DNA of 52,698 nt from Nemertoderma westbladi (GCA_032718475.1 JAUCBJ010007401.1:1-52698), one strand, 5' to 3'. Counted from the stretch's first letter, positions 1 through 26,100 are shown. Numbers and translations are program-made. Notes: generated by a model not told the origin, from the sequence alone.

Positions 1-362
1 TTGTAACTTCCGAGCACATTGATATTCTAACATCATTCCAACCATACATGTCATGAGCGGTTGGGTGGCAGCTGACAGATCCAGTAGTTGGTATAACCAT
101 CATGGTGTTTTCCCAAAACGAATTGGGAAGAGTCGGAAAACCCAAACTGAGAAACAAAGATTCAGCACTGCGAAACATGCGGTCACTGGTGAACCCCTGT
201 TCCACCATCGCATTAGTTACATCTAAGGAAGCAACACCCGGGAATGGGTTTAACAGGTCTAGTAGGCCTTCCCATTGGTTCACGTAAATGTTACCCAATA
301 GATGGGCGGGGATAAGACCCTCAATAAAGTCTACGTTCGGATAAGTTGCTTCTAGTTTCCTC
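1..362 (-). CDS. ACE-family (peptidase M2) gene, internal exon; runs off the window start
   Basis: tttacag acceptor at 365-363; translation RKLEATYPNVDFIEGLIPAHLLGNIYVNQWEGL...LDVTNAMVEQGFTSDRMFRSAESLFLSLGF...FWENTMM...SCHPTAHDMYGWNDVRISMC matches the ACE motifs IPAHLLGN, FW..SM and VCH..AWD. Confidence 0.93.
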
Positions 363-794
363 CTGTAAACAATGAAAAGAGTTGTTACAATATATGAGAT
401 CTATATTGTAAACAACGTAAGAAACTGTAAGCTGGTTCAGGTATGATTGATTGAATCATTGTAGTAAGGATCCTGTCTACTCTAATTCAATTAATTAATG
501 AATCTGGTATATACGTAGCTAATGCATGCCCTGTGGCAAAGGGAGGGAAACTGGACGCTATAAAAATGCATCCCTCTCCAGGGGAACTTGGACGCAAATA
601 ACAGCTATTTACGAGCAAATATATAACTGTAACCTGTTCTGTTGTGTTTAGTTTATTGTTTTGGTTAAAATAACGTTCCACTGTAACCTGCTCCTTTCCC
701 TAAATTGAGAATTTAACATTGAGGCGGGATATTAATTCGCCAAGGCGGGTTTTTCGCCACCCCCCCCCCCCCCCGTCTCCCCTGTGGAGATAAA

Positions 795-2878: not shown

Positions 2879-4080
2879 TGTAAAAGCTTTTGTGGGATAA
2901 CTGATTCGTTTGCTTTGCTAACCAGTTCCCCCCAGTCGCTGAATACTCTAAAAAGGGATATCTAGCTAGAATAGTGCAAGCTACCGGCTGATTGGCTGAT
3001 TTGCTGTGCGAAGGGATCTGGGTGCTGTTCGATCGGCCAACCAGCTTAGGGAGGTTGCCTCAGCCCTGTTTGCCGTATCGGCCAATAGAATTTGAGTTGG
3101 CGTTGATTTTGACCTATCCCAGAGCTACTGAACTGAATTTCCTATCTGTATGCTCATCCTCTGTGTTGGACGGGAGTTTCGGGGAATAAAGGTAGTTGGT
3201 ATCCTCGTATAGAGTAGTAGTCATTGTGTTCATTGTTGTAGTTGTTGTGTTCCCATTTTTCGCCAGACCACCGGCTTTTGGGAAGAACTCTAGTAAAACT
3301 GCTTAAATTATTGAAAGTATAACTGTTATCTCACTAACTAATCTAACTCACTATTAATCATATGATTCTCCCGAACTTTACTTATGAATTATATTATTTG
3401 TACTGTTATTTACTGTCAGTTATTAATTGTATCGATTTGTTGAGGAAATATTACCCTTTGGAGAATACTGATAAATCACCCAAAATTCCCAATTTTCTTG
3501 ATACACTACAGGTTAGAGAGACAGGCTATACATAACAATTGCGATTTATATCAATGTGGTGTGTATTGAATCTAATGTTATTTAGCAGACCCTACATGAG
3601 TCAATTGCTGCTCTCTTTATGTGTGATCAAATTTACTGACGGTCGGCAGAATAGTGTGCATGATTGTGATTGATAACAAAGCATTTCCTAAAGAATGCGC
3701 CTTATACTTTAATCATAAGCATTATCGTTGTGTTTAGTATAAGTCCTAGCTCTGTTTAAATAGATAGAGCGCCACGTCCTAAAGGAACTGTTAATATTTC
3801 CCGAAAGCCAATAATATCTGTCAGAAATTAATTATTAACGATCAATCGAATAATACAGTAGGTTTACACTGCAATCTTACACTGCAATAATAAAATTTAA
3901 GCAGCCGAATTCAGCCTCCCGGGTGTATCCATCGGGTGAATGATCGCGCATGGGCTGGCTTCGGTTAATGTTTTGTTTATTAGCATAAAATATTGTCGTA
4001 TGCTAAAGGTGTTTTAATTAACTAAAAGACATATAAATTTTGGCAGGTTAAACTGCTAAAGGTCTTCAAAAGCGCGAACA
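2879..4080 (+). repeat. 5' LTR (1202 bp)
   Basis: Starts TGTAAAAGC, ends GCGCGAACA; aligns end to end with 20262-21452; AATAAA near 3889. Confidence 0.95.
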
Positions 4081-4092
4081 ATAACAGTTATA
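4081..4092 (+). promoter_or_regulatory. Non-canonical primer-binding-site position (ATAACAGTTATA)
   Basis: Directly abuts the LTR CA; no TGG; exact reverse complement of LTR 3318-3329. Confidence 0.55.
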
Positions 4093-4135
4093 GATCTTAT
4101 TGCAGTAAGCAATAAGGTTGCAAAATACCGTAGTG

Positions 4136-4278
4136 ACCGGTAACCCTGAACCGGTACTTCTGTAGGTCAGTAGGCCCAACAACCTGAACCGGTACTGCTG
4201 TAGGTCCGTAGGTCCAACTGCCAGAACCGGTACTTCTGTAGGTCTGTAGGCCCAACTGTCCTAACCGGTACTGCTGTA
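4136..4278 (+). repeat. ~38-39-bp tandem repeat, about 4 copies, in the element leader
   Basis: Unit approximately aaccggtactKctgtaggtcNgtaggYccaac. Confidence 0.85.
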
Positions 4279-4440
4279 TAAGTACATTAGTATTATTCGA
4301 ATTTGATTAGTGCATACCGGTAGGCTGTTTAAGAGATTAGGGACTGTACACCCCTTGTTTCTTTTGGAGCTTACTTATTTCTGTTGGTTTTATTTCCTAG
4401 TAAGTTAATATTGAGCTGAAGACGTGTAAGTCTGCTCAGA

Positions 4441-5025
4441 TTACTCAGATATTTTGTAGGCTGAATTGCTGTCTGACTGTTGTTGGGTTTGGAGAGATTA
4501 TGGCGTGTGTAGAGTTTGTCTGATAAAGTGCCGTTAGTAAGTTGGGGCAGCCATATGCTGTAAGGTCAATCCCCTCTTAAAGAATAAGTCGTACTACCGT
4601 GTTAGAACGCATACTAACTAACAGTTTCAGAATCTGCATATACTGTAGTTTATTTAGGCTTGATCGTGGTCTGCCAGCATTTTGGCCTGTGTTTGTTTGT
4701 GTAGTCTGTTCAGGTACCGTAATAGTTATTACTCAGATATTTTGTAGGCTGGATTGTTGTCTAGTTATTATTAGGTCTGAAGAGATTGCTGTGTGTGTGG
4801 AGTTTGTCTGATAAAGTGCCGTTAGTAAGTTGGGGCAGCCATATGCTGTAAGGTCAATCCCCTCTTAAAGAATAAGTCGTACTACCGTGTTAGAACGCAT
4901 ACTAACTAACCATTTCAGAATCTACACGTACGGTAGTTTATTTAGGCTTGGTGGTAGTCTGCCAGCGTTTGGTTTGTATTTTGTTTGAGTATTCTGTACG
5001 GGTAGCGTAATATTTATTATTCAGA
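4441..5025 (+). repeat. ~288-bp direct duplication in the element leader
   Basis: ttactcagatattttgtaggctg at 4441 and 4729; gagtttgtctgataaagtgccg at 4512 and 4800. Confidence 0.9.
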
Positions 5026-5959
5026 GTTTATGCGATTATTCGCAACATTCATGTCCCCAAGTTTATCTCTACAGTAATTGTGCTTGTTATACATACCGTT
5101 ATAGTTAAATTAACCCCGGTACTACACGGGCTGCTTGGCGTAGGACAAGACTGGTGACTTTGTGCTCTGGTCACTCCAGCAGATGCCGTGGTTCTTTTAA
5201 CTGTTCAAGTATATTTAACTACTGATTATTTGTTGTACCAGTACTTGTATCTAATTTAGGGTTTAGTGTACAGTGCTTCCGAGAGTAATTAGTGTGTAGG
5301 CAGTATATTTGTGTTGTAAAGTGGTTGATAGGCACATTCGTTAGCTCTATTAACTTCTGGGTAGGAACACTCCGTGATACATAACGTAGTACCTATAGCG
5401 ATACGGTTATAGGTCGTCAGGCAGTGGTATTTTCCTATCTGGACAGTGCAATATATTTACTACTACTTATTATTTCAAATACCGTAGTACCCTGTCCGTT
5501 GTAATAACCAGAAATCTAACCCTTTGTTAGGCTGGTTTGTAGACTTCCTGTAAAATTACCCTAAAAAAAAAATTTCGTACGTAATATTTTTGTTGTGTTT
5601 TCAATTAGAGAATTAATCTCACCCGTATCGTAAGTAATTTGTAGTATTAAGTAACTTAGGTAAATTAGAATTATCTGTTTTAGTGTCTCAATAAGTAACA
5701 CTTCACTGAGAGCGCACAGCTTCTGTGTAGTGACTTCCCCAGAAATAATAACATTTATTTCAAATATTGAAAAAACCCATTTAAACGGGTATATATCTAT
5801 TATAAATCAACTCAAACGATTTATAAATAGTAGGCCTGCAATACAACAACTAGGTCTCAATATCAGTTGGACTACTGCTTAAATAACGGTAATAAAGTAA
5901 GTTAAAGTAACCAAGTAACCCTAAAATATTCAGAAATTCAATTATTCTAAAAATAATTG

Positions 5960-6215
5960 ACATACCGGTACTTACCATAGGCTTATTATATTTATTTCTA
6001 TAAATTTGAGCTGAAATCATACCGGTATTCTGTAATTAATTCTAGTTCATAATTATACTTATATATACTATAAGTGTAAGCTATATACCGGTATTCACGA
6101 TAGGCCTATTATATATTTATATATATTTGTGCTAAAATTATATACCGGTACTCTGTGACAAATCTAGTCTGTAATAATACTTATATATATATTATAAGCA
6201 TACCGGTATTCTAAT
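5960..6215 (+). repeat. AT-rich ~120-bp dimeric repeat built around TACCGGTA
   Basis: Five ATACCGGTA motifs about 57-65 bp apart with alternating similar spacers. Confidence 0.75.
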
Positions 6216-6346
6216 ATATTGTATATATATCACGTTAAACCGAGTAACGGTATCGGTAATAAATCGCTAAGCTTGCGGTCATACTGAATTACCAGACTTG
6301 CTTTAACTGAAACTATAGTAGTAGACATTCAACTGTATAGCTAAAC

Positions 6347-9300
6347 ATGTCTGACACTCAGCAAAACCTGTCAGACAGTCTGATCGATACAACCATCTGT
6401 GACACAGATAGGAGTGTGGAGCGATTAAGAAAGGAGTTCAGCTCACCTCCTACTGCAAGAAAGGTCATCCCTCCAGTAGTATCAGACCCTAGGCTAATCC
6501 ACCATAGGTCCATCATAGGCACTCGGGCACAGGTCAAACGGAACCAAGAGGCAGTTGTCCTATCGCAGCAACATCTTGGTCAAGAACCTACTTCCCAGCG
6601 ACCCGATAGCTCCAGTACTTCGGATACTGTAGAGCTGACCCCCGAACGCGGAGTGCAGATGGCTGCTACAGTCTACTCGGACCCCCTTCTTACCCTTCCT
6701 GCTGCAGTGCTAACTACTATATTCATTGCGGTGGAGGAACATCAAGCCGACTGGGCGAGAAATAAGCGAGCGACCCAAGATAATTATGCGGGATACGCCA
6801 GGGAAGAATTGATGTCTATTGTCGAGTCACAATGGAACTTTCCCGGACTCGGACTCCCGTTGGATCTGTCCGAGGCTACTTGGGAAGATATATACAGGAT
6901 GGGAGTGGCTAAAGATACAATGGATCCAGCTGTTTGGAAGAGGTCGGCAGCAGGATATGTACAGGGATTCTTCGGCTCCTTGGAGCGATTGGAAGAACAA
7001 CTGTTTCGACAACCCCAAGGACCTCAAGAGCAGGAAGAGCTGCTATACCAAGTACGCGAAAGAACCCTACGCATTCGACTAATCCTATCAGCCTTTGAGG
7101 AAACTTCCAAAAGAAGACAGGACACGTCGCTGCAGGTTGCTGTCAAAACTTGGTTCCATCGGGTAGGTCTCAAAGTACAGGAAACGGCCCAGTGGAAATC
7201 CCAGCTGGCTGAGAGATCAACCTATGAAGAACAAACTGATGTCACCCTTTCTCAAGCGGAAAGCGAAGAGACCGCCGAGAAACCGCGAACTAGAGACGCT
7301 ATCGACATTTATCTGTCTGACTATCAGCGATTCCTAGGAGACGAAGAGTTGAGGAGACGGCTGTCTGGACTTTCCCCTAATAGTGAAGGAACCAAGCTTG
7401 TGTTGGATTCAATCGATGCCGAAATGTTAGCTGCAAACCAAGCTGAATTTGATGAAAAAATCCGCCTCACTAGAGTCCGAGAAGAACAGGTAAAGAAAGA
7501 ACGGATAGAGAAAAGAAAGGTGGCAGCAGCAGCGGCGGCAGAAGCAGAAGCCGAAAGAAAGGCGGCAAAGGCAGAAGCCGAAAGAAAGGCGGCAGAAACA
7601 GAAGCCGAAAGAAAGGCGGCAAAGGCAGAAGCCGAAAGAAAGGCGGCAGAAGCAGAAGCAGAAAGAAAAGCAGCAGTGGCAGAAGCAGAACGGAGAGCTT
7701 CTGAGGAGACTATCCAACTGGAGTTGGAAAATCTGCAAGAGACGCAAGACAGTATAAATAAACAGTTTACTGCTAATCAAATGCAGATGATGAGAAAATC
7801 TACTCCCAAGCGCCAGGGATACACATCCTCGGAGGAAGGCGAGACCACCGATCCTGAAGGCGGAGGAAATAGATCTCATCTAAGTAGGCGTAGAAAAACA
7901 TCTTACCGTCGCAAATTGCCTGATTTGCCCCCAGCTGTTAGAAGACAGCTAGCTAGCACAGACTTGAGTAGTATAGAACCTACAGCACAAAGTATTAAGG
8001 TCAAAAGACTCCCTACAATAGTTGATGAGCCTGAAATAATTAGGCCTGTCGTTCCCAAAGTCACTTCTGTGTTAGAGACCCCTGTACTTCCAGAGCTTAA
8101 CTCTAAATTCCCTTTACATAGTACTACACTGCCTGTACCCGGTAGAACAGTCCAAGAGAATATCCCTGTCTGGATAGCAGAGAGAGAAATCAAAGATTTG
8201 TCTCCCGTCGTCCCGCGTCAGCCCGCTACTATGTTGGCGACTCCCGCTTCGGCGGTTGAGTGGGTAGAAGAGGGATGGCGGGGGATGAATCTCCTGCTAG
8301 GACAGATGCAGGAGACTGTCCACCAACTTAAGGGAACAGTGAGGGAAGGTAGAGCAGAGTTGCAAGAAGTGCAGCAAAGTATCGCACTAGAACGCGACAA
8401 ATTAGTCAATATCCAAAAGGGCATACCAATACCCCATGTAACATTGTGTCAACCTGTTAGGTCTGAAGTACTACATGCGCAAGGTGTGGAGCCTACACGC
8501 ATCTATACTGCTAGTGAAGTAGAAACTCCTATAGCAAACCCTATTAAGGGTGATTATACGCCTGTTGCTAATGATATTCCCTATAGACCTGATAATAATC
8601 CAAGGAATTTATATACCGATAATTCGATATTAAATAACATGATGGCTCAAGAAAGCTTTACGCGTCAGATGGCTAGAACAGAAGCCCGCCAAGCGGTCAA
8701 AGTGGGAGAGATCGTCAAATTCAATGGAGATGAGATGAAATGGTTACCTTTCAACGAATATTACAAAGATAGCATACAGAACTCTGTACTATCTAACGGA
8801 GAGAAACTTAGATTCCTCATCAAGTGCTTGGAAGGACCTCCCAAGTTAATGGCGTTAAAGTTTATTGGACATCCAGATGGATTAAGACAAGTTTGGGATA
8901 CATTAAACATCAGGTATGGTAACAAGGATAACATAGCTAAGTATTTGTATGCAAAATTAGTAGCCCCCCGACACTTCCTTAGTAACGGGATTATAGAGTT
9001 TTCCGATGAAATTCAAGAGATCTGTAGACAACTGGACTGGTTAGGTAAGTCGCATGAATATCAGAGTTCCATGGTTATTAGAGCCGTAGTCTCTACTTTA
9101 CCAAAGGGTGGAGTATGTACACGCTGGGACAAGAAAGTGTTGTACATGAATGAACAACAACGACGAAGTCCTACCATGGCTGATCTCATGTCTTTCTTAG
9201 ATGGTGAAGTAAAACTACAACTCATCAAGCAGTCCAGAGAGAAAACATCGGAAAATAAGGTAAGTGAGAAACCCACTTCTAGGAGAAGAGTAACACCGGT

Positions 9301-10438
9301 GTGTTACACTGACGACGGCGAAAGCCAAGCTTCCCAAGAAGAGGACAGCGGGAAAGACACAGACCGATCTTACTATGTTGACAAAACCTCAAAGGATGTA
9401 AGTAAATACAAGGCTCGAAACAACGATAGGAGAGATTAGGTTGCCAAGACCCCTCCTCAGTCTCCTAACAGAATGCACCGAAGAAAACCCGAAGAAAAAA
9501 CGAGAGTGCATCAAGTTACCCAAGGTAAAGTGAGTAACATAAAACCTAACTGTGCGCTGTGCGACGGGACCCACCGTTTGAGTGCGTGTGCTGAATTTCT
9601 AAAGAAATCCCTTGTAGACAGACGTACAGTCGTGTGGGACAAGCGGTTATGCTATAATTGCCTCAGACCAGGACATCAACGGCGAACCTGTTACTCAGAC
9701 ATAAAGTGTGCAAAGTGTGGCGCGAAACATCACATCTTGTTACACAGTGAGTTCGAACGAGACAGACAGAGTCAGGTAAGTGAGCCCGAACTACATGTCC
9801 AATTTAGTGACGTAAACGACACTGATCAAGAGTCTGAGATGGAAGGATTCTATACTGACGAATTCTCCGACGCCAATGAATCCTGTTATCTAATAAATAC
9901 CGCAGTGTATCGAGCACTTACTTACGAAAAGGACATCAACGATGAGTTTCCCCCAACTACTTTCACCAAACAACCATCTTGGAAAGCTCCAGCTTCCAAC
10001 GTAGGAATCAGAGAATTTCCTGTAGTTCAGGTAAGAGTTCACGGTCTTAACAAAAGCTACATAGTGAACGCCCTCCTTGACTCCGGCAGCACAGGAACAT
10101 TCATCGATCAAGAACTAGCCGAAGATATCTTTGCTGGACAACCCAAGTTCCGGACTAAATTGAATATGTCAGGAATTATGCAGGTTTGGAAATCTACCCT
10201 AACGGCAGATTACTATGTAGGTGTGTTGTCCACCCCCCAGGATCAGTTAGGAACCCAAGGCATAAGGTCAGTAAAAATGGTGGCTATAAAGAACTTTGCT
10301 ACTACTCAAGCAGACCTTTATAATTGGGACGAAGATGAGAGCATCCAACATCTTAAGATACCTCGATTCCAGACAGATTATCCTGGAGTGCAAATACTCA
10401 TCGGTCAAAACGCGCACGAGGCGCTCGAAACATTATAG
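6347..10438 (+). pseudogene. gag: BEL/Pao Gag-protease region, interrupted by TAG at 9437-9439
   Basis: DUF1759-like KFNGDEMKWLPF...LSNGEKLRFLIKCLEGP; knuckles CALCDGTHRLSAC, CYNCLRPGHQRRTC, CAKCGAKHHILLH; protease ALLDSGS; ORFs at 6347 and 9473 share a frame. Confidence 0.93.
7530..7700 (+). repeat. 24-bp coding repeat (AEAERKAA-like, about 6 copies) in Gag
   Basis: gcagaagccgaaagaaaggcggca repeated in frame. Confidence 0.9.
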
Positions 10439-13400
10439 AAACGGCCTGCTCAACCACAACCATTGCAAACCTATGCGGTAAGAACTAGAGTAGGTTGATA
10501 CTTTACTGGCCCTTCCCGTAGAACTCTCGAAGAGAGAATGCCATACGAACAAATATATCAAGTAAACGATTGGGAAGTGGAAAGCAGTGAGGTGGACGAA
10601 CTAACTGAAGGAACACCATACTCCTCAGATAATGACGACATCTACCAACTCTTCGATGAAGAGAACACAATGGACCTACTTACCGAAAACCAAACTTGGA
10701 AAAATCAGGTGAATCTATGTCAACTGATTCGCCCATCGGAACCCATTACTTACAATGACGAACTAAACGATGAGATAGAGCGCTACAACGCTAGAACTCG
10801 GGACGAACTAGCCGTACGATTCTTTACCCAAGAATTGGTAGAACCCAATTCATACGACAAAGCCCTGTCGATAGAAGAAGAAAGAGCCAAGCAAATCCAG
10901 GAAACAACCACACGTTTTTTAAAAGATCAAGGTAGATATGAAATCGGACTACCCTTCCGAAAACGGGAACCTAGATTTATAAATAACAGACCCTTGGCTG
11001 AGAAAAGAATCAATCAATTACATCGACGTCTTACGGCAAATGCTTCAGCTAAGGAAATGTACCAAACTCAGTTGAAGAAATTTATCACAAAGGGATATGC
11101 GGAGCGAGTACCGGAAGGAACTCCAATAACTGAAAGAACTTATTATCTAACACATCATTACGTTCCCAAACCCGGTAAACCCCATGAAGTACGGGTCGTA
11201 TTTGATGGCTCCGCCCTATATATGGGCCAATCCCTCAATTCCGAGTTGTTACCAGGACCCAACTTGCTCCAATCTTTGTTGGGAATACTTTTAAGATTAA
11301 GACAATATTCCATCGCGTTCGCCTCCGATATAGAAGGAATGTTCTTACAAGTCAAGGCGTTGGATCGTGATAGAGACAGCCTAAGATTCCTGTGGTGGCC
11401 TGAAGGAGATCTCAACCAGAAACCGGTAGAGTACTGGATGACCATCCAGGCTTTTGGGATTATATCAAGCCCTTCAAACGCCTGCTCAGTGGTTCGTACC
11501 ACTGCGGATGACAACCGGGATGCCTTCTCCAAAGAGGTATAACATCAAATGAGACATATACATGGACGACAATTTAAAGTCCCTTCCATCAGTAAAGGAA
11601 GCCATTGATGTCGCGAAAGGAACGGTTGAGTGTTTGAAAAGAGGTGGATTTCGATTGACAAAGTTCACCAGCAACTCCCGTGAGTTTCTGGAAGCAATAT
11701 CTGTAGAAGACCGGGGATCAAAAGACCTCGACTTAATACATGACGATCTTCCGGAAACCAAGACGCTTGGCTTGAAGTGGGACACAGAAAGAGATATCCT
11801 GTTTTTTCAGTTAAAACAGAGAGATAATCCAGTTCGGACCAAACGGATTTGTTTAAGTATTCTGAGCACTTATTTCGATCCCTTGGGATTTATTAGCCCA
11901 GTTATATTGATTGCTCGGAGTTTAGTACAACAAATGTGGCTTGAAAACCACTCGTGGGACGATCCACTCAAGGGAGAACTATTAAAGAAATGGATGAAAT
12001 GGGAGGACTCGCTACCTGCCATCGAGAACTTTATAATTTCTCGTTCATATTTTGGTCATGTTCTCCCTACGTATTCCTATCAACTCCATGTATTTGGAGA
12101 TGCCAGCGATATGGGAATCGGTATAGTAGCATACCTGCGAGTCGAAACTCCGGATGGAATCAAAGTTGCCTTGGTTACCTCTAAGGCATTGATTAACAAC
12201 AAGCTTAAGGTTCCTCGGGCGGAGTTAAAAGCCGCTTTATACGCTACAGCTATCGGCCGGAATGTAACAGAACAGATCGATTATCCACTGGAGAAAACTG
12301 TTTATTGGACCGACGCTTTACTTGTATTGGAATATATAACGAATGAAGTCTGTCAGTTCAGCGTCTTTGTTACTAACAGAGTGGCCATTATTCTTAGTCG
12401 CACGACGATAGATCAATGGAGACATTGCCCTGGTACGATTAACCCAGCTGACATCGCCTCCAGAGGAGCCACTCCACAGGAACTGATAGATACTCCTGAC
12501 TGGTTGGGTGGACCCGACTTCCTGAGCAAGGAAGAGGATGAATGGCCTCCTCACCTTACTACGGCTGAGATTAGACAAGCCAAGGGAGCGGAGAAAGTCA
12601 AACCCAAATCTCGGACAAGTAAATCGAAGTTATTTAAACCAACAATCGATCTATCTGTATTACATACTGCCGAAAGCGATACTTCGGATCCACAATAAAG
12701 CCATCACATACTTAAAGAGATGTTTTCACCATCACTACTCCAGGACGCAGACCACTAGTGATCCTGCTCCAGTGACATCTGCGCAAGTTCATGTTATTAA
12801 AGATCTACCTAAGTACAAGATATCAGACCGGTTTCTAAAGGAGAAGATCAGTTACCAGGAGCATGAAGAAACTAATAAGCAGCTACTGAGACTCCTGCAA
12901 CGCTATGAGGATTCTGATAGGTATTTTCTGCTGTTGAGAAATCCGCAGATGCGCTTAAGGGATCGCTTCTCTAGCACAATGATAGATGGGTTAATACGTG
13001 TTGGAGGAAGGCTTACCAACGCCCCATTATCCTTTGATACTAAATTCCCTATACTCATTAGTAATCTTGAAGTACAAATCAAGATGATTGTAGATGTTCA
13101 CAGTAAACTGTATCATGCCGGTAGAGAACGAGTTCTTAGCGAAATTCGAACTCGCTATTATTTTCATAAACCACGTAGAGCTCTGAATCAAGTTCTTAGG
13201 AACTGCATACCTTGTAGGAAAGCATTCAGTAGGCCTTTAACACAGCGAGAGGCAGAATTACCTAGGGAACGAGTAAGCTTTTATGAACCACCCTTTACTA
13301 ATACTGGTGTGGATTTATTTGGCCCTATTGAAGTATATCGTGCTAGAACTATAGTCAAGAGATGGTGTGTAATCTTTGTCTGCATGACTTGTAGAGCTAT

Positions 13401-14310
13401 CCATCTCGATATGGTGAACGACCTATCTACTAACAGCTTCGTCTTATGTTTACGACGACAGATCGCTCGTTTCGGAACTAGCAACACGATGAGATCCGAT
13501 AAGGGAACGAACTTCATTGGTGCCAACAACGAAATTCAGGCTTACGTAAAGGACTGGAATCAAAGACAGGTGGACGACCAGCTACGGATAACGGCGTCTA
13601 GCTGGACCTTTAACGCCGCCGACGCCCCTTGGTGGGGAGGAAGTTGGGAGAGATTAATTCGAAGTGTCAAGACCGCATTTCACTTTATAGTGCCGTGTCG
13701 CGCATATCTCACCGACGAACTTCTGCGGACGTTAATGGAAGAAATCGCTGCCTATCTTAACGAGAGACCGCTTATGCCAGTCTCATCGAGTCTCGACTCC
13801 CTGGAAGCGCTAACACCCGCGCACTTCCTACTTAAGAAACCTGTAGCCATGCTCCCACAATCCGAGATTGCCGATGGAGATGAATACTGTCGTCGAACTT
13901 GGCAGCTTATGCAGTTGCTATCCCGTCGTTTCGCTGACCATTTTGAGAAACATTATCTGCCCACGCTACAACTTCGAACTAAGTGGTTTGCGCAGCAGGA
14001 AAATGTCAGCGCCGGAGACATGGTCCTTATTGTAGATCCGGACCTTCCACGTAGACGGTGGCAGATAGGTCGTATCATCGAGACGCACATCTCGGAGGAT
14101 GGTCTAGTGCGCTCGGTAGAACTCGTCGTAATGCGGCGTAACTTCAAGAAACCCAGCATAATCTTTGAGACGCAACAACTCAATCGCCCGGTTGGTCGTT
14201 TATGTTTGCTGGAAAGAGACCGGGAACTCTCCGGAAACTATGGAAGGCAAGAAACCCTTCCCACGACCACCTCCCTAATACCTCAAACATCTAGGGGCTC
14301 TTCAACGTAG
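10439..14310 (+). pseudogene. pol: BEL/Pao Pol (RT, RNase H, integrase), disrupted
   Basis: RT RVVFDGSA...LNSELLPGPNL...DIEGMFLQV, YMDD at 11559; RNase H LHVFGDAS and VPRAEL; integrase H-H-C-C, GVDLFGP, SDKGTNF, GGSWERLI; stops at 10436, 10496, 11550 and frameshifts near 11540 and 12700. Confidence 0.95.
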
Positions 14311-15927
14311 TACGTCTGGAGTGGGTGTATGTCAATATTATTTTATCTATTTTTATTACATTTTATATGTAAATGTTATTATGTACGTTATTATAATCGT
14401 TTTTATTTAATTTTATTTAGTAAAATGTTATTTTAGAATATTTAGTAAATTAGTGCAATATATTAGTGTTTATTACGTATTTAATTACTTATAATATATT
14501 TAGTGCGACGGCAAGAAATAATTATTTTCTCTTTCCTTACTGTCCGTATTATATTATAAATGCGAGACTATAGTAAGATGACATGTCAGTACTTCTTAAA
14601 GTACAATAAAGCCACTACTATATTTAAGTATTATTGGTAGGCAGAGTATTAGGAATGCAAAGTTCAGATCCTCGTGTCTCGGCTAAACCAAGCTCTGGGT
14701 AGACCTTGGAAACGACTTGCCTCTTCACACTGACATTGCTTCGTGCGATATTGCTCTTCTACCTTATAACAAATAATACATATAGTAGCGTGATGTCCCT
14801 CTAACAGTAGCGTAAATCGCAAATAAATCTGTTAAACTTTTTGACCATCTGTAATTCTAGTCGATGGAGATATCGTGGCACCCACCGATATACTTGAAAG
14901 ACAAATTCTAGAATCAGTGGTTAACGTCCCCAGACAAGTTCTGGAATAAATCGGTGCTCATCCTAAATATTAATTTAATATTTATTAAAATCTGTAAAAT
15001 CCCGATCCTTTAAAATTTCTAGTCAATTAAGATATCGCAGTATTTACCGATATTCTTAGAAGGACTATTTTATAGAATTAAGGATCCTAAGTCCCCAGAT
15101 ATGCTCTGGAATAAAATTTGTGTCAATTTAACATCAAATAATAAAATTCACGGGAATAAATTTAAATTCATATTCAAATGAATTTCATAAATTGTCATTT
15201 TGTGCAATTTATAACATTCCCAAAAGTCCAGTAATTAATAGATCATGGGAGCGGAGATTCATATTGAGTGTACTAGAGTGCGAGAATCTCCAACATATAG
15301 TCAATAGCCTATAAAATTTATGAAATCATGCATAAAGAGGATATTGACAATTAAAGAATTACTATTAAATAGCATCCCAGATCTGTATGCATGAGAATTA
15401 CCCTAATTCTACCGCTAGTTTTCCATAATGTCACCATGGCAACACCCACGCTAGAATTAGAAGCAAGTTAAAGGAAAAATAAAAAGCTTGCCCCATTGCG
15501 TAGCATAAGAGTATACATAGCGCACTATTAGTATCCAAGAATACATAGTAATAACGTGACATTCTGGAAGACACTGATTAACGGACAAATGGCCTGCATG
15601 TGTGCAGTAAGTAATGATTGTATGGAATTTGTGCGTTTATAGGTGAATGTTACTACTAAAGTGTGTTTACAGTAGCTAATCGCAATTGTAAAGTAGCCCT
15701 AACTCTACCGAGATAACCTCAAGTGGATTCAAGCCTTTGGGACGGACAGTGGTGGGACTTGTGCCGGTTATCGTTGTCGTGCTGTTGCTACATGTTGGCG
15801 CAAACACCGCGACGACGGTACATCGGCGCTGAGAAACCCACTGTCCGGGGGCAAAGACTAGTAGGCAGCAACGCCCGCTTGCCTAAATATTAACTCATAC
15901 TGATATTAATAAACTCAGATAGCAGAT

Positions 15928-18900
15928 ATGACGGAATTGATAGAAGATGACCTTGGTATTAGAGAGCGATATACTCTACCTTTACAAGCGTTTGTGGATA
16001 GCTTGATACGCGGTGAAGCCGATCCGACTATTACGGAGGACGATGGTCGTTATATCGAACCGCCGATGTCCCAGGAACAACTTACGCGTGAATTGGACTA
16101 TAGAAAATTCACCGCTCGCTATACGAATCGTAATGGTATGTATATGGACTTCTTAACTACCGGCCATCCTACCGATTTACATGATACGGAAGATGTAGAC
16201 ACCGAAAGGGAAATGGTTTTATTTAAATATCATGCCCAGCGGAATCGTAATGATAAACCGAGAATAGAACACGAGAACTCTATTCGCAACCTACTCGACA
16301 GAGAAAACGTTGAAGAACCCGATAAGCGCATCAACTTCAACGACTACTTGGAATTTTTGAGAGAAACCTATCTCAATATTGCCAGTCAACAGAACCTAGA
16401 GACTCGATATCCTCAAGGTATACATCACGATCCCATGGTAGAACTCAAACGACTCTATTTCACCATGATGTATCTTACCTCAGATCGTCCACTGCCTGTT
16501 GTCCCGGACAGCTTTGAACAAATGGAAGAGTATTGCAAAACTGGAGAACGATCACCTGCGTTTCCTCTGCAGGACGTACGTCTTTGGTATTATTGTGACT
16601 CATGCCCTAGACCTAACCAGCAAACGGAAAGACATAAACATCCGCGAAGACGTTGTGCTAAACACAGTTTTACGCGTTATACTTACGGGAGTTTCGAGCG
16701 AAACCTGTTCGACGTATCACCTACGATCGCCCGTCTAAAACGATCGCTAAATAAACCCATGATCAGAGTTCCGGAATACTCGGTCAGGCCTCCTCATTCC
16801 CCAGTGAGACCTCAAACTCTTGATCCTAACAGTATCACTGATCCTCCCGAGTTATACTCACTGTTCAAAGATTTGGTGTTACCCGAGCAGTTAATTGGTG
16901 GTGTTCCAGCGGTAGGTTCGTTAGATATTCGACCATCCTATTTAACCGGATTGGGACGCGGGCATCTAACATCGCCATTTAATCCTTACAATCGGCCAGG
17001 ATTAACTCCGATACAACCTGCCACGGAAGTCGAGGAGAGTGTCATCAGAAACGCTTTAGACGCCATCCGACAGAAAATCGGAAAGGGAACACAGGATTTT
17101 CTAGAGAAACGTAAATTACAGCAGCAGGTCCAATTGGTGAAAGAGTTAGCCTTGCCGCAGTTTGATAGAGAAATCCAAAACCTCGAAGAGGACATCGAGC
17201 TTGGACGTACGTATTCTCTACAGGAGTTTCTAGAAGAACGCTTACATAAACAAGCGGAGGAAAATCAACTAGAGGAGAAACATACGGAAATGGATGAGAG
17301 AGAAGAAGCCGCTTTAGCCCAACCCGAAGCTCAGATACTCATAACCGATCTCTACTCTAAAACCGTCCGTCATCCCTCGATGGTTCCGCATTTCGGAGAC
17401 AAACTTTTTGCAAAGATACAACCCCAACCGGTTGATATCAGCATAAGATCGCAAAATCTTATCGCTGACGCTCCTATGTTACAGCGTCCGCCAATCGAGG
17501 CCGCTCGAGTTGATGGTATACTCGTTGAACCTCCGGACAATCGAGCGGATCTTGTCCGTCGTATGGTACACAATGTCAACTTACGCGCTAGACCTTTACA
17601 GAACTCTTTTTATGGAATTAAAGACCACCCTTATTACGTTAATCTGACTCAATATTATATGGTCAAACCAGAAGATCCGATGCATAATTTAAAGTTTCTA
17701 CCACTAATAAATCCTCTGGACATTGTCGAACTCGAACAATTACAAAAACATCTGGATCAGTTAGTAAAGGTAAACTCATTTCGAAAACCATATAACGTTT
17801 CTCGAATAGAGAAGGATACAGAACCTCCTTATAATCTAGATGGATTTATTAAAACTCGATTAGTCCATTGGAATCTAGACGTATTATTCGAGGAGGAGAA
17901 GATACAAAGATATGGAAATGTGGAGACGTATACCACTCGATACATGAAGTATAGTGATCTCCCTGACGCTAATCAATGCGCCACCTTGTGGCATCCAGTA
18001 GGGATGACCCTCGAGAACGCCACCAAAGAGTGGAATGAAACTCTTAATATCATTGAGATGTATGGCGTTGTTACTTACGATAACGAAGGTAGCGTTCCAA
18101 TCGGAGAATTAGGAACTACGCGCATGATACACATACGCGGATTAGCTGGTTCCACTCACGTGTTTACGCGAGCGTGTTCCGACGTGATAGATTATTCCTT
18201 TGAAACTCTCACCGAAACGCAAAAGAATCTCCGACATGGACAATTCGAACTCGCGCAGCGTTACGTCATTGATACCGAACGCAAACCGGCCATGGGTATC
18301 GATGGATCGATGTTACCCCAGCCCGTTCTCGAGATGTTATTCAACGAAAGAATCATTAAAATCGGCTCAGCTGTTTACGGAGATCTCCAAAACGACTTTC
18401 GGAATATGGAAAATATCCCCTATCCTTTCGTGGATACTCAGCTGATAGCTCCTTGGGCCGAAGGCCGAGGTTTCTTTCGCACCATGTATGCTAATGCGTC
18501 TAGCAACATTACAAAGGTGCAACGAACTTCCATCGGACATCTTGCTTTTCAGGAATACGGATGGAATTTCAAGGTCGGAAATCCCATCAACTATCAACAA
18601 GTATACGGAGACCATTATGCTCGATTATACTTTGACGGACCGTTGACCACACCTGGCGCCGTGTATAGCTTCATGAGTGTTCCACTCCGCCCCTCCTTAG
18701 CTATCTACACGATCTTCGAAAACACCGCACTTTCCGGTTGGCTAGCCGATGTGTGCAGTCGTACTATACGCGCCCATCCATTAATACTTGGGACCAAACT
18801 CGCTAAGCTAGATGAACATAATAAATTCATCCGCTTTGAATGTTTCCGACGATTTTTAACCCCGTTTCGCAACGTGGATAGCCAATTCAAAGACCGCGCT

Positions 18901-19974
18901 TTGACCAAGCTCAGCTTAAGAGACTCGGCTGCGGAGAAGTTAGATAGCGCTGGATTTGCTATTTTCAAAGACATTTGTATAATAAACCTGCACTCCTCTG
19001 TTATCCAAAGACCTCGAATCCCCACAGGTTATTCTGTCGTGGAAATTCAGACGGTAGGTCCACTTGAGGAGACAGCCATGCCTACCTCAACTATACAAGG
19101 GGAAGACGAACCCATATGTTTAGAATCTGAAGAGATTCAGCCCCCCACGTCTCGGAGTAGCGATAGCGACTACATATTGGAATGGTATCAAGGTCCACAG
19201 TGTCTTACTGCGTATGATTATCGCCATGCCAATTATGTTTCTCAACAACGTTGTCGGCTGTGCGCATCGAGAGACCATATTACGTCTATGGACACCAACG
19301 ATCTCTGTTCCTATTTCCACGAGCAACCGTCGATGGAAATCTATTGTGCATATTGTCGGCTTAATAATTTGCACATTTTTGCTGTCTGCCCCCAATTTAT
19401 GACTCAATGCCATCATTGTCAATTAAAAGGACACGCCAGCTTTGATTGTCCCTTTAATCATGATTTAGAGAGTGTAGATGAAATGATTGTACTACGTTAT
19501 ATCAGAGCTTGGGAAGCGAACGCTGATTTACATTGTGATTCACGCCATCGCTATTACCCTGGACGCGCTTACGAAGGAGTTTATGCGTTCCATCCTTATT
19601 TGTTTGCCTCCGTCGAGCAGAAATCACGCCTATCGAGTTATGAACTACTGAAGCGCGTTGGAGAATGTATTTCAACCAAATATGTACGCAAATTTCTCAG
19701 GAGCATTAATCCGAGTGACATCTATTCTTACAACTTAATAAACTTTATCCGTCAAGACCCTGCCTATGGAGACTTATTTGTCAACTCACACCCCGAGTTA
19801 CAGGAAGTATATCGACGGCCTTACGAGTACCGAGCCCGCGAACGCGAGTTGGAAAGAACCATTAAACCAAGGAAGTTTCTGACTGCCTATGGCCCACCCA
19901 CGGCTCTCGTTCAGACGACTCTTAAAGGACCCGTAAGAGCAGCCGTCTTAAAACGCGCTCTCAAAGGTCATTAA
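15928..19974 (+). CDS. Accessory 1348-aa ORF: putative DEDDy (WRN/EXD/Mut-7-like) 3'-5' exonuclease domain plus CCHC zinc knuckles
   Basis: Uninterrupted 4-kb ORF between pol and the 3' LTR; ExoI VVTYDNEG, LPQPVLEMLFNERIIKIGSAVYGD (ExoII), FVDTQLIA, SIGHLA, PLRPSLAIYTIFE (ExoIII-like); knuckles at 19252-19449. Confidence 0.75.
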   Translation: MTELIEDDLGIRERYTLPLQAFVDSLIRGEADPTITEDDGRYIEPPMSQEQLTRELDYRKFTARYTNRNGMYMDFLTTGHPTDLHDTEDVDTEREMVLFKYHAQRNRNDKPRIEHENSIRNLLDRENVEEPDKRINFNDYLEFLRETYLNIASQQNLETRYPQGIHHDPMVELKRLYFTMMYLTSDRPLPVVPDSFEQMEEYCKTGERSPAFPLQDVRLWYYCDSCPRPNQQTERHKHPRRRCAKHSFTRYTYGSFERNLFDVSPTIARLKRSLNKPMIRVPEYSVRPPHSPVRPQTLDPNSITDPPELYSLFKDLVLPEQLIGGVPAVGSLDIRPSYLTGLGRGHLTSPFNPYNRPGLTPIQPATEVEESVIRNALDAIRQKIGKGTQDFLEKRKLQQQVQLVKELALPQFDREIQNLEEDIELGRTYSLQEFLEERLHKQAEENQLEEKHTEMDEREEAALAQPEAQILITDLYSKTVRHPSMVPHFGDKLFAKIQPQPVDISIRSQNLIADAPMLQRPPIEAARVDGILVEPPDNRADLVRRMVHNVNLRARPLQNSFYGIKDHPYYVNLTQYYMVKPEDPMHNLKFLPLINPLDIVELEQLQKHLDQLVKVNSFRKPYNVSRIEKDTEPPYNLDGFIKTRLVHWNLDVLFEEEKIQRYGNVETYTTRYMKYSDLPDANQCATLWHPVGMTLENATKEWNETLNIIEMYGVVTYDNEGSVPIGELGTTRMIHIRGLAGSTHVFTRACSDVIDYSFETLTETQKNLRHGQFELAQRYVIDTERKPAMGIDGSMLPQPVLEMLFNERIIKIGSAVYGDLQNDFRNMENIPYPFVDTQLIAPWAEGRGFFRTMYANASSNITKVQRTSIGHLAFQEYGWNFKVGNPINYQQVYGDHYARLYFDGPLTTPGAVYSFMSVPLRPSLAIYTIFENTALSGWLADVCSRTIRAHPLILGTKLAKLDEHNKFIRFECFRRFLTPFRNVDSQFKDRALTKLSLRDSAAEKLDSAGFAIFKDICIINLHSSVIQRPRIPTGYSVVEIQTVGPLEETAMPTSTIQGEDEPICLESEEIQPPTSRSSDSDYILEWYQGPQCLTAYDYRHANYVSQQRCRLCASRDHITSMDTNDLCSYFHEQPSMEIYCAYCRLNNLHIFAVCPQFMTQCHHCQLKGHASFDCPFNHDLESVDEMIVLRYIRAWEANADLHCDSRHRYYPGRAYEGVYAFHPYLFASVEQKSRLSSYELLKRVGECISTKYVRKFLRSINPSDIYSYNLINFIRQDPAYGDLFVNSHPELQEVYRRPYEYRARERELERTIKPRKFLTAYGPPTALVQTTLKGPVRAAVLKRALKGH

Positions 19975-20250
19975 ACCCCTCCCCACCGAAGTGGAAGTCG
20001 ACCAACCCGGTCACTTCGACCGGCGGATATACCGATCGTAATCCCATACCTTCTGATGCAATCATATTGCACCCTTCACCCAGGAGTTATAGCCCTCCTT
20101 GTAAAGTGGCTCGCCCCAAAGAGAAAAGGACTCTTGCTAGCTTTAAAAAACTGCGTAAACGCCGTCCGCGCAAGAAAGACTAACTGTTTAGAGTATTTTT
20201 ATATTTTAGAAACTGTGATTTTGTATATTTTATAGACTTAAATCCCATTT

Positions 20251-20261
20251 TCTGGGAGCGG
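20251..20261 (+). promoter_or_regulatory. Short polypurine-tract-like site
   Basis: tctGGGAGCGG immediately before the 3' LTR TG. Confidence 0.55.
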
Positions 20262-21452
20262 TGTAAAAGCTTTTGTGGGATAACTGATTCGTTTGCCTTG
20301 CTGGCCAGTTCCCCCCCGGTCGCTAGAATACTCTAAAAGGGATCTATAGCTAAAATAGTGCAAGCTACCAGCTTATTGGCTGATGTGCTGTACGAAGGTA
20401 TCTGGGTGCTGTTCGATCGGCCAACCAGCTTAGGGAGGTTGCCTCAGCCCTGCTGTGCCGTATCGGCCAATAGAATTTGAGTGGGCGTTGATTTTGACCT
20501 ATCCCAGAGCTACTGAACTGAATTTCCTATCTGTATGCTCATCCTCTGTGTTGGACGGGAGCTTCGGGGAATAAGGGTAGTTGGTATCCTCGTATAGTCA
20601 TGTAGTCATATGATTCTTTATATGATTCTGTTGTTGTGTTCCCATTTTTCGCCAGACCACCGGCTTTTGGGAAGAACTCTAGTAAAACTGCTTAAATTAT
20701 CGAAAGTATAACTGTTATCAATCAATCAACTAACTAGTCATTCTAAATAACTCATTATTAATTATATTGTTTGTACTGTTATTTACCGTCAGTTATTAAT
20801 TGTGTCTATTTGTTGAGGAAATATTGCTCTTTGGAGAATACTGATAAATCACCCAAATTTCCCAATTTTCTTGATACACTACAGGTTAGAGAGACAGGCT
20901 ATACATAACAATTGCGATTTAATCAATGTGGTGTGTATTGAATCTAATGTTATTTAGCAGACACTACATGAGTCAATTGCTGTTCTCTTTATGTGTGATC
21001 AAATTTACTGACGGTCGGCAGAATAGTGTGCATGATTGTGATTGGTAACAAAGCATTTCCTAAAGAATGCGCCTTATACTTTAATCATAAGCAGTATCGT
21101 TGCGTTTAGTATAAGTCCTAGCTCTGTTTAAATAGATAGAGCGCCACGTCCTAAAGGAACTGTTAATATTTCCCGAAAGCCAATAATATCTGTCAGAAAT
21201 TAATTATTAACGATCAATCGAATAATACAGTAGGTTTACACTGCAATCTTACACTGCAATAATAAAATTTAAGCAGCCGAATTCAGCCTCCCGGGTGTAT
21301 CCATCGGGTGAATGATCGCGCATGGGCTGGCTTCGGTTAATGTTTTGTTTATTAGCATAAAATATTGTCGTATGCTAAAGGTGTTTTAATTAACTAAAAG
21401 ACATATAAATTTTGGCAGGTTAAACTGCTAAAGGTCTTCAAAAGCGCGAACA
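20262..21452 (+). repeat. 3' LTR (1191 bp)
   Basis: TGTAAAAGC...GCGCGAACA, homologous to 2879-4080. Confidence 0.95.
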
Positions 21453-23169: not shown

Positions 23170-26100
23170 CAAGCTCAAGTCGCAACAGCAACTGCTTACC
23201 CTGAGGACACCGTCGCATGCGCTAGAGGTAGCTGGGAAGGCTGTCTGACTAGATGACGGGCAAAGCCTTCCGAACAGAGCTCCCTTCACTTCGGTCCAAC
23301 GGACTTCACCAACCTTTTGTAGAGGCTGCAACAAGCCGTACTGGTACCTAATGAGCCTGAGGAAACATGAACGGCATTGTAATAGATTCCAAATATCATA
23401 GACTCTAACACTGTTAGAGGAACTGCCATTCAATGAGGTGTGGGGGCCCTCTACTATCGCTGACAATGAAACGGGGACCTCCATTGTTCTTTGAAATGTG
23501 GAAGGAGCGAAAAGTACAATAGAAACTACATGTGATGACACATTTTGTACAACTGACATCCTTCTCCTAACTGAAACCCTAGACGAGGATCTTGATATTC
23601 CCTCCTTTACTTGCGCCAATGTACCCTGTAAGAAGGGGAACGCTGGCAGGCCACATGGTGGATTAACAATAGCGAGCAATACACGAAATGGTGGGAATAC
23701 GAACTGTCACCATAAAAGCGAGAATATAATTGCGGCTTCCCTCCCAGGACTCGAAATAATATCCTCATGCTATAAACCAGAAACAGATGTAACTGATATA
23801 TTACTGGATCTCATTAATGTCATCAATGATATACGTGCGCATTCCCCTGCTCCGCTGCTGCTTGCTGGGGAGTTTAACTGTCGCCTCGATGGAGACAGTA
23901 CCCGGGGTGACCTCCTATGCGATGGCTTACTGGGTACAGGTCTATCCTGATACATCAGTGACAGATGCTACGGTACCTACCTACCTATGCTGGAATGGCC
24001 AGAGTGTCATTGACCTCGTGTTCGTTGACACCCCTCTACTTGACCTCGTTGATGATTATGTTAAACCAATCGTAAACTGCAAACACCAGCGAGTATTTAT
24101 TAATCTATCGATAACTCCCCCCCCCCCCCCCCCCCGTTCCAGATTGAAACAATCCGGGATATAAACAGCGCATGCGACTATATCACCGAAGCCCTACAAG
24201 CTGCATCCGTCCCCCGCCAACTGAGAAAATCTAAACCTTGGTTCACAAAAGAATGTTATGATTTACAACGACCTGTAAATGCGAGCCACGCCGCAGTCCG
24301 CTCACAGCCAAGCGATATAACTCGCCTCGAATATTCTGAGCTGACGTATACATATAAAACTCTTTTACATTCTTAGAAGAGGATATATGAGGCCCAGCAA
24401 GAACAAAAATTAATAGACCGTTGTGAGGCTGATATAACAGAGTTCTGGAATATAACAAAGGGTAAATGAGAGAACTCTGCACCCCAACAGGTTGCAGCAG
24501 AGGACTGGGCAACTCACTTTGACAACCTACTGAACAGAGCTGTTGATACCCAGCTACCCGACCTTCCTGATCAACCTGTTCTGGAACTCGACCGCCCAAT
24601 AGATGCGGCCAAGGTCACTTCATCCGTCAATGGAAACAAGAGCCATAAAGCGGCGGGCCCCAACGCGACCTCAAACGAATCATTAAAACTCGGTCTCCCC
24701 CTACTATTACCATTCCTCCTTGTGCTTTTTTTCCACGTGTTTCGCAGTGGCCCAGGTGGCTGGTTAACATCAAATCTCCTTCCACTCTACAAAGATAAGG
24801 GGCCAAAGTCGTCCCCGAACTCGTACCGCAGAGTCGCGCTCCTATCATGTCTGCTAAAGACGTACACGTCTAAACTCTTTAACAGACTCTACAGCTGGGC
24901 GGAAATTAGCGGAGTCCTACCGGTATGTCAGTTCGGCTTCCGGAAGGGGAAATCAACCATACAGGCCGCTATGCAACTCCATGCACATATCCGGTGTGCG
25001 TTGAGTTTACCACGTGGTCACTTCTACAGCGTATTCGTGGACTTCTCAAAGGCATTTGACTCTATCAACCGAAGGAAACTCTGTCTTAAACTCTCAATAC
25101 TGGGTCTTAGTCGTACTTTTATAGCAGCAATATGGGCTATAATCGGATGCAACTTTGTCTGTATATGCCTGGGGATATATTTAATTGAGCCCATAACTCA
25201 AATGATTGGCATAATCCAGGGTGATAAACTTTCCCCCCTACTCTTCAGCCTATTTGTTTCCAACATCCCTGCTGTTATATTAGCTGCAGGCTGCTGTTTA
25301 TATATGTACGCGGATGACGTCGCGATTACTGGTAACATGATCACTGAGGTTCAAACCAGCCTCCTAGAGTACCTCCTGGCATACTGCAAAGAAAATGACC
25401 TCGTCGTCAATAAGGCGAAAACGAAGGCGATGTAATTCCACCGTGGTGGCCGCCTCTGCAGAACCGACATCCTAGTCTACAATGGATCCCCCCTGGAGTT
25501 CGTCAACTCCTTCGAGTACCTCGGGGTTGTCCTCACGACAAAGAACTGCGCCACAGGTCACTCTACAAACACCTACACAAGCGTGGGATATCAGCCTGTA
25601 TGTGATTGGCAATTAAGGTCAATTTCTAGTTCATCTCCATGACAACAGCCCAGCGTCTATGGAAGCTCGTTATTCTACCAGCGACGACCTACGGCTGCGC
25701 TGCGCAGTCTTCGGCGTAGTTCCATCGAACGCTGACTCGCTGAACCACGTCGTAGTGGTTCGAGCGTTCTATTGGAAAGTGTGATGCGGGGTAAGTAAAT
25801 ACGCCTCCACCACGGCAATACTAAACGCAGTCGATCACCCTTCAGAGAACGGCGAGCTCTCCCTCCTCGAACTCACCGGCTATAGATGCCGTGCGGCAGC
25901 CCAATTCATTTCTAACGGCTCGCACCACAAGCTATGCCTCAGCAAAGGGTGCTGGAGACCGATGCCCACATGTATCTGCCGTCTCTGCGACGGTCCGGCG
26001 ACGGACAAGGACCACAGCCTCAGTTGTACTGGCATCCCAACTCTCTCAACAACATTTAAACGTTCCCTGTTCCTTTACGCCCTAAACGACTTTTAACTGA

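Follow-up and report, generated by a model that had tools for sequence, protein, structure and literature searches.

The window analysed here is a 52,698-nt stretch of the genome of Nemertoderma westbladi (GCA_032718475.1, JAUCBJ010007401.1:1-52698). It holds a long terminal repeat (LTR) retrotransposon on the + strand, 18,574 bp in total length, bounded by direct repeats with TG...CA ends. Between the integrase gene and the 3′ LTR, where an env gene would be expected, lies an intact third open reading frame (ORF3) whose product appears to combine a remote DEDDy-type exonuclease-like domain with three zinc knuckles. A first annotation of the window (hereafter the original prediction) had proposed such a cargo gene in a giant BEL/Pao element. 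We describe the element and ORF3, the evidence for the domain, the ways in which the element may express ORF3 and prime its reverse transcription, and the functions that ORF3 could serve.

Structure of the element

The order on the + strand is a 2.3-kb leader, gag, knuckles and protease, reverse transcriptase (RT) and RNase H, integrase, ORF3 and 3′ LTR. Integrase and ORF3 are separated by 1.6 kb without a long frame, and the end of ORF3 is separated from the 3′ LTR by 287 bp that end in a purine-rich tract. The main features are as follows.

2879..4080, +, 5′ LTR; 1202 bp, TG...CA; left part unlike the 3′ LTR, last 349 bp identical to it
6347..9439, +, gag; DUF1759, E 3e-12; contains a 27-bp repeat; in-frame stop at its end
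9440..10438, +, Gag nucleocapsid knuckles and an aspartic protease piece
10499..12698, +, RT and RNase H; Peptidase_A17, E 5e-37; interrupted by stops and a frame change
12526..14310, +, integrase; Integrase_H2C2 and DUF5641; frame differs from that of RNase H
15928..19974, +, ORF3; 1348 amino acid residues (aa), intact
20254..20261, +, short purine-rich tract; adjoins the 3′ LTR
20262..21452, +, 3′ LTR; 1191 bp, TG...CA

Judged by its proteins, the element is of the BEL/Pao type: the four Pfam domains DUF1759, Peptidase_A17, DUF5641 and Integrase_H2C2 all exceed their curated cut-offs, Gag has three knuckles, and Pol has the order protease, RT, RNase H, integrase (PR-RT-RH-IN). ICTV's profile of Belpaoviridae gives a genome of 4.2-10 kb and an 18-nt primer site for tRNA-Arg or tRNA-Gly (PMC8742986). 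At 18,574 bp the present element is nearly twice that size range, and positions 4081-4130 contain no TGG; because the tRNA primer site of the family is missing, we file the element as BEL/Pao-type by its proteins only.

The gag-pol region of this copy is broken into five ORF pieces: in-frame stops interrupt it at 9437, 10436 and 10496, and the frame changes both near 11550 and on passing from RNase H to integrase. The flanks of the element, CCTTG and CATAG, form no duplicated target site; in most LTR elements the duplication is 4-6 bp (PMC12440569). The two LTRs differ by 46 substitutions, every one of them in the left 853 bp (2879-3731 against 20262-21110; p ~1e-7) and none in the last 349 bp. 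With differences so uneven and with flanks that disagree, the 5′ LTR is likely to owe its left part to another copy, by recombination or by mis-joining.

Tandem repeats with 38-bp and 288-bp units were also seen in the leader (4145-4278 and 4440-5025), and the 27-bp repeat of gag, encoding EAERKAA, is at 7534-7690.

ORF3

ORF3 divides into four parts:

15928..17994, +, N-terminal ~690 aa; without a family match; not present in three relatives
17995..18777, +, DEDDy exonuclease-like domain, aa 690-950; D718, E720, D819, D836, Y927, E931
19252..19449, +, three zinc knuckles, aa 1109-1174
19495..19632, +, conserved tail (E..A...R.R....G); 3′ of the knuckles; matches no known family

The frame is stop-free over 1348 aa, for which the chance is ~1e-33 at its composition. 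It lies within the LTRs, between the integrase ORF (ending at 14310) and the 3′ LTR, as the original prediction had it; the residue numbers given there are also correct (VVTYDNE at 714-720, KIGSAVYGD at 811-819, FVDTQ at 834-838 and AIYTIFE at 925-931). The prediction had further noted the lack of Env features, and the best 19-residue Kyte-Doolittle mean, 1.37, bears out that ORF3 has no transmembrane segment. Env features were rejected for it. Its CpG content is 1.26, against 0.71-1.04 in gag-pol.

The N-terminal part has no match in Pfam or the ESM Atlas. At aa 223-246 its cysteines and a histidine form the pattern C-x2-C ... H ... C, which may bind zinc. A separate 85-codon stop-free stretch in another frame (19926-20183, +) overlaps the end of ORF3 and has a basic, nuclear-signal-like run at its terminus.

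Exonuclease-like domain

Residues ~690-950 are, with high confidence, a remote DEDDy-type exonuclease-like domain. The evidence consists of several weak, independent searches that agree, none of them proof alone: matches from NCBIfam, the ESM Atlas, the PDB, bacterial genomes and an RNase D profile all point to the domain that the original prediction had recognised by its motifs. The 18,950 NCBIfam models return only two matches to aa 640-1000, both of them RNase D (E 0.0026 and 0.017). From the ESM Atlas, 25 of 30 matches are PF01612, at 0.92 with 155 shared features, a result that the tool's own note calls a lead. A profile of ORF3 and its three relatives (see below) finds EXD2 (E 0.11) in the PDB as the sole non-knuckle match in the domain region. 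In 201 bacterial genomes the same family profile finds three matches, and the two of them that fall within the domain belong to RNase D.

When the trimmed family alignment is compared by hhalign with 78 RNase D domains, the match stands at 91% (E 1.1e-6) over 150 columns and includes ExoI, ExoII, DTQ and ExoIII in that order. The score of the real alignment, 47.3 bits, compares with 15.1 for the reversed one and with a maximum of 29.0 over 100 shuffles of its columns. RNase D was picked for this comparison after the earlier matches, and the comparison measures coverage, not discovery. The Pfam model PF01612, which the original prediction had named as a check, does not match ORF3, and relative P0001 reaches 11.9 bits against a threshold of 23.6. 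With scores below the gathering threshold, the ORF3 domain is therefore taken as a remote relative and not as a filed member of PF01612.

Other searches returned little. Single-sequence searches of the PDB, PHROGs and phages with ORF3 were blank or noise, and a plasmid search gave one RNase D only, at E 9. Viral and prokaryotic collections, scanned for loci of ORF3, of RNase H and of each of its three relatives, yielded no relative, and a metagenome scan found bacterial RNase D only. Word-index protein searches (with the ORF3 region and with an alignment) were blank, a weak negative since relatives P0002 and P0007 are in that collection yet were missed.

The putative catalytic tetrad is D718, E720, D819 and E931, plus Y927, so that the motif reads D-E-D-E(y). 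At D718, E720 and D819, which line up with RNase D, all 44 rows of the alignment agree. Since the acidic residues and the tyrosine are kept at 20-28% overall identity, we think the domain is probably catalytically active.

A structural model was obtained by adding 40 RNase D domains to the AlphaFold alignment, with boundaries selected to give the E931 register. This seeded model has a predicted local distance difference test (pLDDT) score of 64, with core blocks at 80-92, and a predicted template modelling score of 0.65. Its top structural matches are Nibbler EXO, diDNase/NrnC, RNase D, Klenow and WRN, and because these are tied at Z 13-14 no donor subfamily can be named.

Knuckles, tail and relatives

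Three CCHC-type knuckles had been predicted downstream of the domain. All three are present, and only the third, CX2CX4HX4C (1161-1174), is canonical; the first reads CX2CX4HX9C (1109-1127) and the second CX2CX5HX4C (1140-1154). Their spacing is unlike that of the element's own Gag knuckles, and their best PDB match is the HIV-1 nucleocapsid (E 1.6e-4).

A search of 1.84 billion protein representatives with aa 621-1271 found two proteins, P0001 (E 2.8e-7) and P0002 (E 8.6e-5), and a search from P0002 retrieved a third, P0007. All three are 575-650 aa long, lack the first ~690 aa of ORF3, and consist of an N-terminal domain, a variable linker, three knuckles and the short conserved tail. Because they share domain, knuckles and tail with ORF3, we treat proteins of this type as a family; the exonuclease-knuckle-tail family has neither a name nor a Pfam model. 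Run against the 878 stop-free stretches of the window, a profile made from the three relatives without ORF3 matches ORF3 (E 5.5e-14) and nothing else. The D, E, D and Y of the predicted active site are invariant in all four members, diverged as they are. The longest contigs that bear the relatives are 9.4-11.5 kb.

ORF3 in other copies of the element

Four sequencing runs from four studies were aligned to the element as contigs. All 30 bins of the element, those of ORF3 included, are covered in all four runs, in identity bands from >99% to <90%. The contig pieces listed are a selection from >119,000 and >9,000. The 15 pieces listed within ORF3 total 5,700 nt and differ by 636 substitutions and by 5 gaps; the 32 listed on the LTR total 3,966 nt, with 337 substitutions and 74 gaps. 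The frame of ORF3 is preserved in copies 10-19% apart, no indel of the 12 listed falls within it, and not one of the 15 joints listed (161 further joints exist) deletes it whole.

The original prediction had considered that ORF3 might prove to be a nested insertion. That alternative is disfavoured by the cover of ORF3 alongside gag-pol in every run and by the absence of terminal repeats of its own, and these data support ORF3 as cargo of the element family.

A joint within ORF3, 16290>19100, was considered as an exon-skipping form and ruled out, being neither GT-AG nor in frame. Two kinds of joint seen in all four runs, 10638>12409 (with a 5-bp microhomology) and 12598>14173/14175, remove most of RT/RNase H or of integrase. 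These forms may represent a widespread non-autonomous subfamily in which gag and ORF3 are retained.

Candidate spliced message

One of the runs, X5, contains a contig that joins the LTR to a point shortly upstream of ORF3:

3511..3512, +, splice-donor-like site CAG/GT; joined to 15713 in run X5
15712..15713, +, splice-acceptor-like site AG; 215 nt upstream of the ORF3 start codon

The joint of 3511 to 15713 skips 12,201 nt that start with GT after CAG and end with AG. A GT-AG reading is expected at 0.5% of random joints. We consider it likely, by analogy, that the joint represents a subgenomic message made as env messages are; ORF3s are typically expressed from spliced messages (PMC5408684). 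In run X5 there is an excess of A>G changes (32, against 14 T>C; p 0.011, and p 0.05 when compared with the other runs pooled), which only hints that the run is RNA.

Primer site

Three features bear on priming:

3318..3329, +, candidate self-primer; 12 nt within the LTR that exactly complement 4081-4092
4081..4092, +, place of the primer-binding site; lacks TGG; complements 3318-3329 of the LTR
4093..4119, +, predicted 11-bp hairpin; directly 3′ of the primer site

No TGG, and so no tRNA primer site, was found within 50 nt after the 5′ LTR. Instead the 12 nt that start at offset 0 behind the LTR are the exact complement of a stretch within it, a finding matched by 2 of 5000 dinucleotide shuffles. 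Self-primers have been recognised by at least 10 bp of complementarity starting 0-5 bp behind the LTR (PMC6317226), and the values here are 12 bp and 0. The 12-bp duplex is present in both the minimum-energy and the centroid fold of 3318-4140. Variation among family members begins right behind both 12-mers: cover drops ~100-fold after 3329, part of the drop being due to the rare LTR variant of this copy, and 4 of the 12 listed indels are at 4093-4096, none of those listed being in 4081-4092. Among the changes listed (106 further substitutions and 19 further indels exist), none is in either 12-mer, and there are no compensatory ones between them. The region thus carries the signature of Tf1-type self-priming. 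A primer built by splicing is unnecessary, as the 12 nt are contiguous; junctions add just 2 nt, and several donors do so alike.

Other features of the window

An exon of a host gene for angiotensin-converting enzyme (Peptidase_M2) lies at 2-400 (-), 2.5 kb from the element. On the other side, 21522-43443 is a region of ~22 kb between TTAA-CCC and GGG-TTAA, with inverted arms of ~1.3 kb that contain 163-bp subrepeats; it is a single giant foldback element or else a pair of inverted copies, with termini that we take to be piggyBac-like. A broken non-LTR retrotransposon occupies 23495-25435 (+) (RVT_1, E 1e-27), with an endonuclease-like piece upstream. At 38714-40837 there is a small DNA-transposon derivative of 2.1 kb with 60-bp terminal inverted repeats and no long frame. 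A calmodulin-like gene at 50506-50973 (+) is intronless and encodes four EF-hands. A 28-bp satellite, 18 copies of which are at 52189-52698, continues past the end of the window.

Comparison with known systems

The Juno and Vesta elements of bdelloid rotifers are LTR elements of the Gypsy type. DEDDy exonuclease ORF3s are found downstream of pol in Juno1/2 and Vesta2/5, and also in Athena/Terminon elements (PMC5408684). DEDD exonucleases have likewise been captured by Penelope-like Terminons (PMC5408684) and by the DNA transposons Dada (PMC3706591) and KolobokD (PMC9587614). The novelty implied by the original prediction, which knew of no such architecture in BEL/Pao elements, does not hold for the cargo: such ORF3s have been published for the LTR retrotransposons Juno and Vesta, where the functions suggested are the same (PMC5408684), so that an exonuclease cargo is not in itself a new kind.

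As in the present element, the bdelloid ORF3 is a separate ORF behind pol, without transmembrane or coiled-coil env features, and has an RNase D-like domain with an intact but altered tetrad whose function is inferred there too (PMC5408684). The bdelloid elements differ in belonging to another LTR superfamily, with GPY/F integrases and LTRs of 159-551 bp, and their motif is DEED, whereas it is D-E-D-E/D here (PMC5408684). Compared by description only, their ORF3s have no triple knuckle and no 690-aa extension in the text available (PMC5408684).

With the group of RNase D, Nibbler (EXD3, Mut-7), WRN-exo, EXD2 and Egalitarian, the ORF3 domain shares the order and spacing of ExoI, ExoII, DTQ and, in the E931 register, PL-x6-Y-x3-acid. 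It differs from them in its 10-21% identity, two insertions of 20-30 aa, the knuckles and the lack of an HRDC domain. Like Belpaoviridae with an env-like third gene, the element has TG..CA LTRs, a three-knuckle Gag, the order PR-RT-RH-IN, BEL-specific Pfam domains and a third gene before the 3′ LTR; unlike them, it measures 18.6 kb and not 4.2-10 kb, its third gene is not env-like, and it has no 18-nt tRNA-Arg/Gly site (PMC8742986).

Tf1/sushi, Tcn1 and TAR also have a primer site right behind the LTR that complements a stretch of the LTR, over 11 nt in Tf1 and 12 nt here (PMC4600332, PMC6317226, PMC7175516). They are Ty3/gypsy or Ty1/copia elements for which these texts, in the portions available, describe no exonuclease gene, and in the present element the likeness is one of sequence signature alone. 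Dada (DEDDy) and KolobokD (DEDDh) are similar as mobile elements with a captured DnaQ-like exonuclease, but they are DNA transposons in which the domain lies within or beside the transposase, and DNA-end processing has been proposed for it (PMC3706591, PMC9587614).

No open-access paper was found that describes, for BEL/Pao elements, self-priming or an ORF for an exonuclease, although subscription papers or Repbase may list such elements. New in the present case are the superfamily (BEL/Pao), the exonuclease-knuckle-tail family, the size of the element, the splice joint and the presence of a self-complementary primer site alongside the cargo.

Possible functions of ORF3

The position of ORF3, its intact frame, its motifs and the relatives with the same two modules are firmly established, in our estimate. 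For its function we tentatively favour an active 3′-5′ ribonuclease, translated from the spliced message, that degrades host silencing RNAs; we put this chain, taken as a whole, slightly below even odds, though above each of its rivals. A subgenomic message from the LTR promoter would yield a soluble ORF3 protein, the nucleocapsid-like knuckles would keep the enzyme on single-stranded RNA, and its DEDDy site would strip nucleotides from RNA 3′ ends. The nuclease would attack the 3′ ends of guide RNAs or of their precursors, in the manner of a hostile trimming of the Nibbler/Mut-7 type, and the shortening or loss of host small RNAs would relieve the silencing of the element. Nibbler, Mut-7 and EXD1 function in small-RNA pathways. 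Silencing RNAs are our preferred target since ORF3 stands apart from Pol and animal members of the group act on small RNAs. We also favour a general anti-host role over a single replication step because, as we infer, the elements that captured DEDD exonucleases share no priming chemistry.

A number of observations speak against a silencing-directed ribonuclease. All matches of the domain in library-wide searches are weak and fall short of curated cut-offs. At the last acidic position ORF3 and P0001 have E, while P0002 and P0007 have D, and under other alignment boundaries (MAFFT) a competing PL-x6-Y register, Y913-x3-S917, wins; it has no acid and would imply a dead site, whereas the E931 register is favoured by the closest relative and by the trimmed alignment. 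The fold proposed by the original prediction, DnaQ-like, is compatible with the seeded model, but the unseeded AlphaFold model, made from three sequences, failed (pLDDT 30), and the DEDDy matches of the seeded model are circular and no independent proof because RNase D rows are in its alignment. The relatives P0001, P0002 and P0007 may not be retrotransposon genes, and 7 of the 10 listed ORF3 differences in the copy are non-synonymous, so this copy drifts. As to the message, the joint 3511>15713 is among the listed joints of one of the four runs only, that run is labelled DNA by guess, and the acceptor is GAG rather than YAG; a deletion at an AG microhomology would look alike. For Dada and KolobokD, DNA-end processing and not counter-defence was proposed (PMC3706591, PMC9587614), and in rotifers DEDDy ORF3s show no clear link with copy number and a silencing role was doubted (PMC5408684).

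The primer site suggests a different substrate. If the element primed itself with its own 5′ end, and RNA paired between 3318-3329 and 4081-4092 were cut in the loop, an ORF3 nuclease brought into the particle by its knuckles could trim the 3′ overhang down to the 12-bp duplex and so enable RT. The lack of TGG within 50 nt, the exact 12-nt complement, its duplex in both folds and the family variation that starts immediately behind both 12-mers all fit such a maturation step, and RNase D-type enzymes trim structured RNA ends (PMC5408684). The self-primer of Tf1, however, is made by RNase H alone (PMC7175516), ORF3 is a separate gene outside Pol, the listed changes include no compensatory ones, and a transcription start at 3318 is only presumed; we regard primer maturation as unlikely. 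We would rank slightly lower a non-catalytic adaptor of the Egalitarian or EXD1 kind, which binds RNA without cutting it and would serve, together with the knuckles and the long N-terminal region, to move or package the genomic RNA of 17 kb. The change from D to E at the last acid, the competing dead register and the 690 additional N-terminal residues would suit it, as would the presence of EXD1 and of Egalitarian bound to I-factor RNA among the structural matches of the seeded model, but D, E, D and Y are invariant in four diverged members and two of these keep the canonical last D.

Proofreading for the reverse transcriptase, by analogy with the coronavirus exonuclease, could permit an 18.6-kb genome. 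The element does exceed its family's size range nearly twofold (PMC8742986), and the fold matches of the seeded model include the exonuclease domains of Pol I and WRN. Since sequence matches favour RNase D, an RNA enzyme, the relatives are on contigs of at most 11.5 kb, and the bdelloid carriers are not described as giant in the text at hand, we find a proofreader improbable. Marginally more improbable still is that ORF3 is a passenger, whether a nested insertion, a captured host gene without a role or a chance likeness of motifs. The unduplicated flanks (CCTTG and CATAG), a CpG content above that of gag-pol and the occurrence of deletion forms within ORF3 (16290>19100) could be read in this way; they are countered by the co-coverage with gag-pol in 4/4 runs, the frame kept in copies 10-19% apart, the joint to the element's own LTR, the lack of terminal repeats and five converging DEDDy hints.

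A bolder combination is conceivable but doubtful: a lineage of giant BEL/Pao elements independent of tRNA would have given up env for an exonuclease, made from a spliced message and carried in the particle, that completes the RNA primer of the element and protects the RNA of 17 kb. The enzyme would belong to a new exonuclease-knuckle family present in several animals.

A nuclease gene in place of env had previously been described for one rotifer group. A second LTR superfamily with an intact nuclease, apparently expressed in the manner of env, suggests repeated capture and a real advantage. If silencing RNA is the target, ORF3 would be a transposon-encoded enzyme against the defence by Piwi-interacting or small interfering RNAs, long suspected and seldom tied to a protein; if the self-primer is the target, it would reveal a new way of starting reverse transcription. 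The question is directly testable, with a small soluble domain, four natural variants, clear catalytic residues and a 12-bp duplex as candidate substrate.

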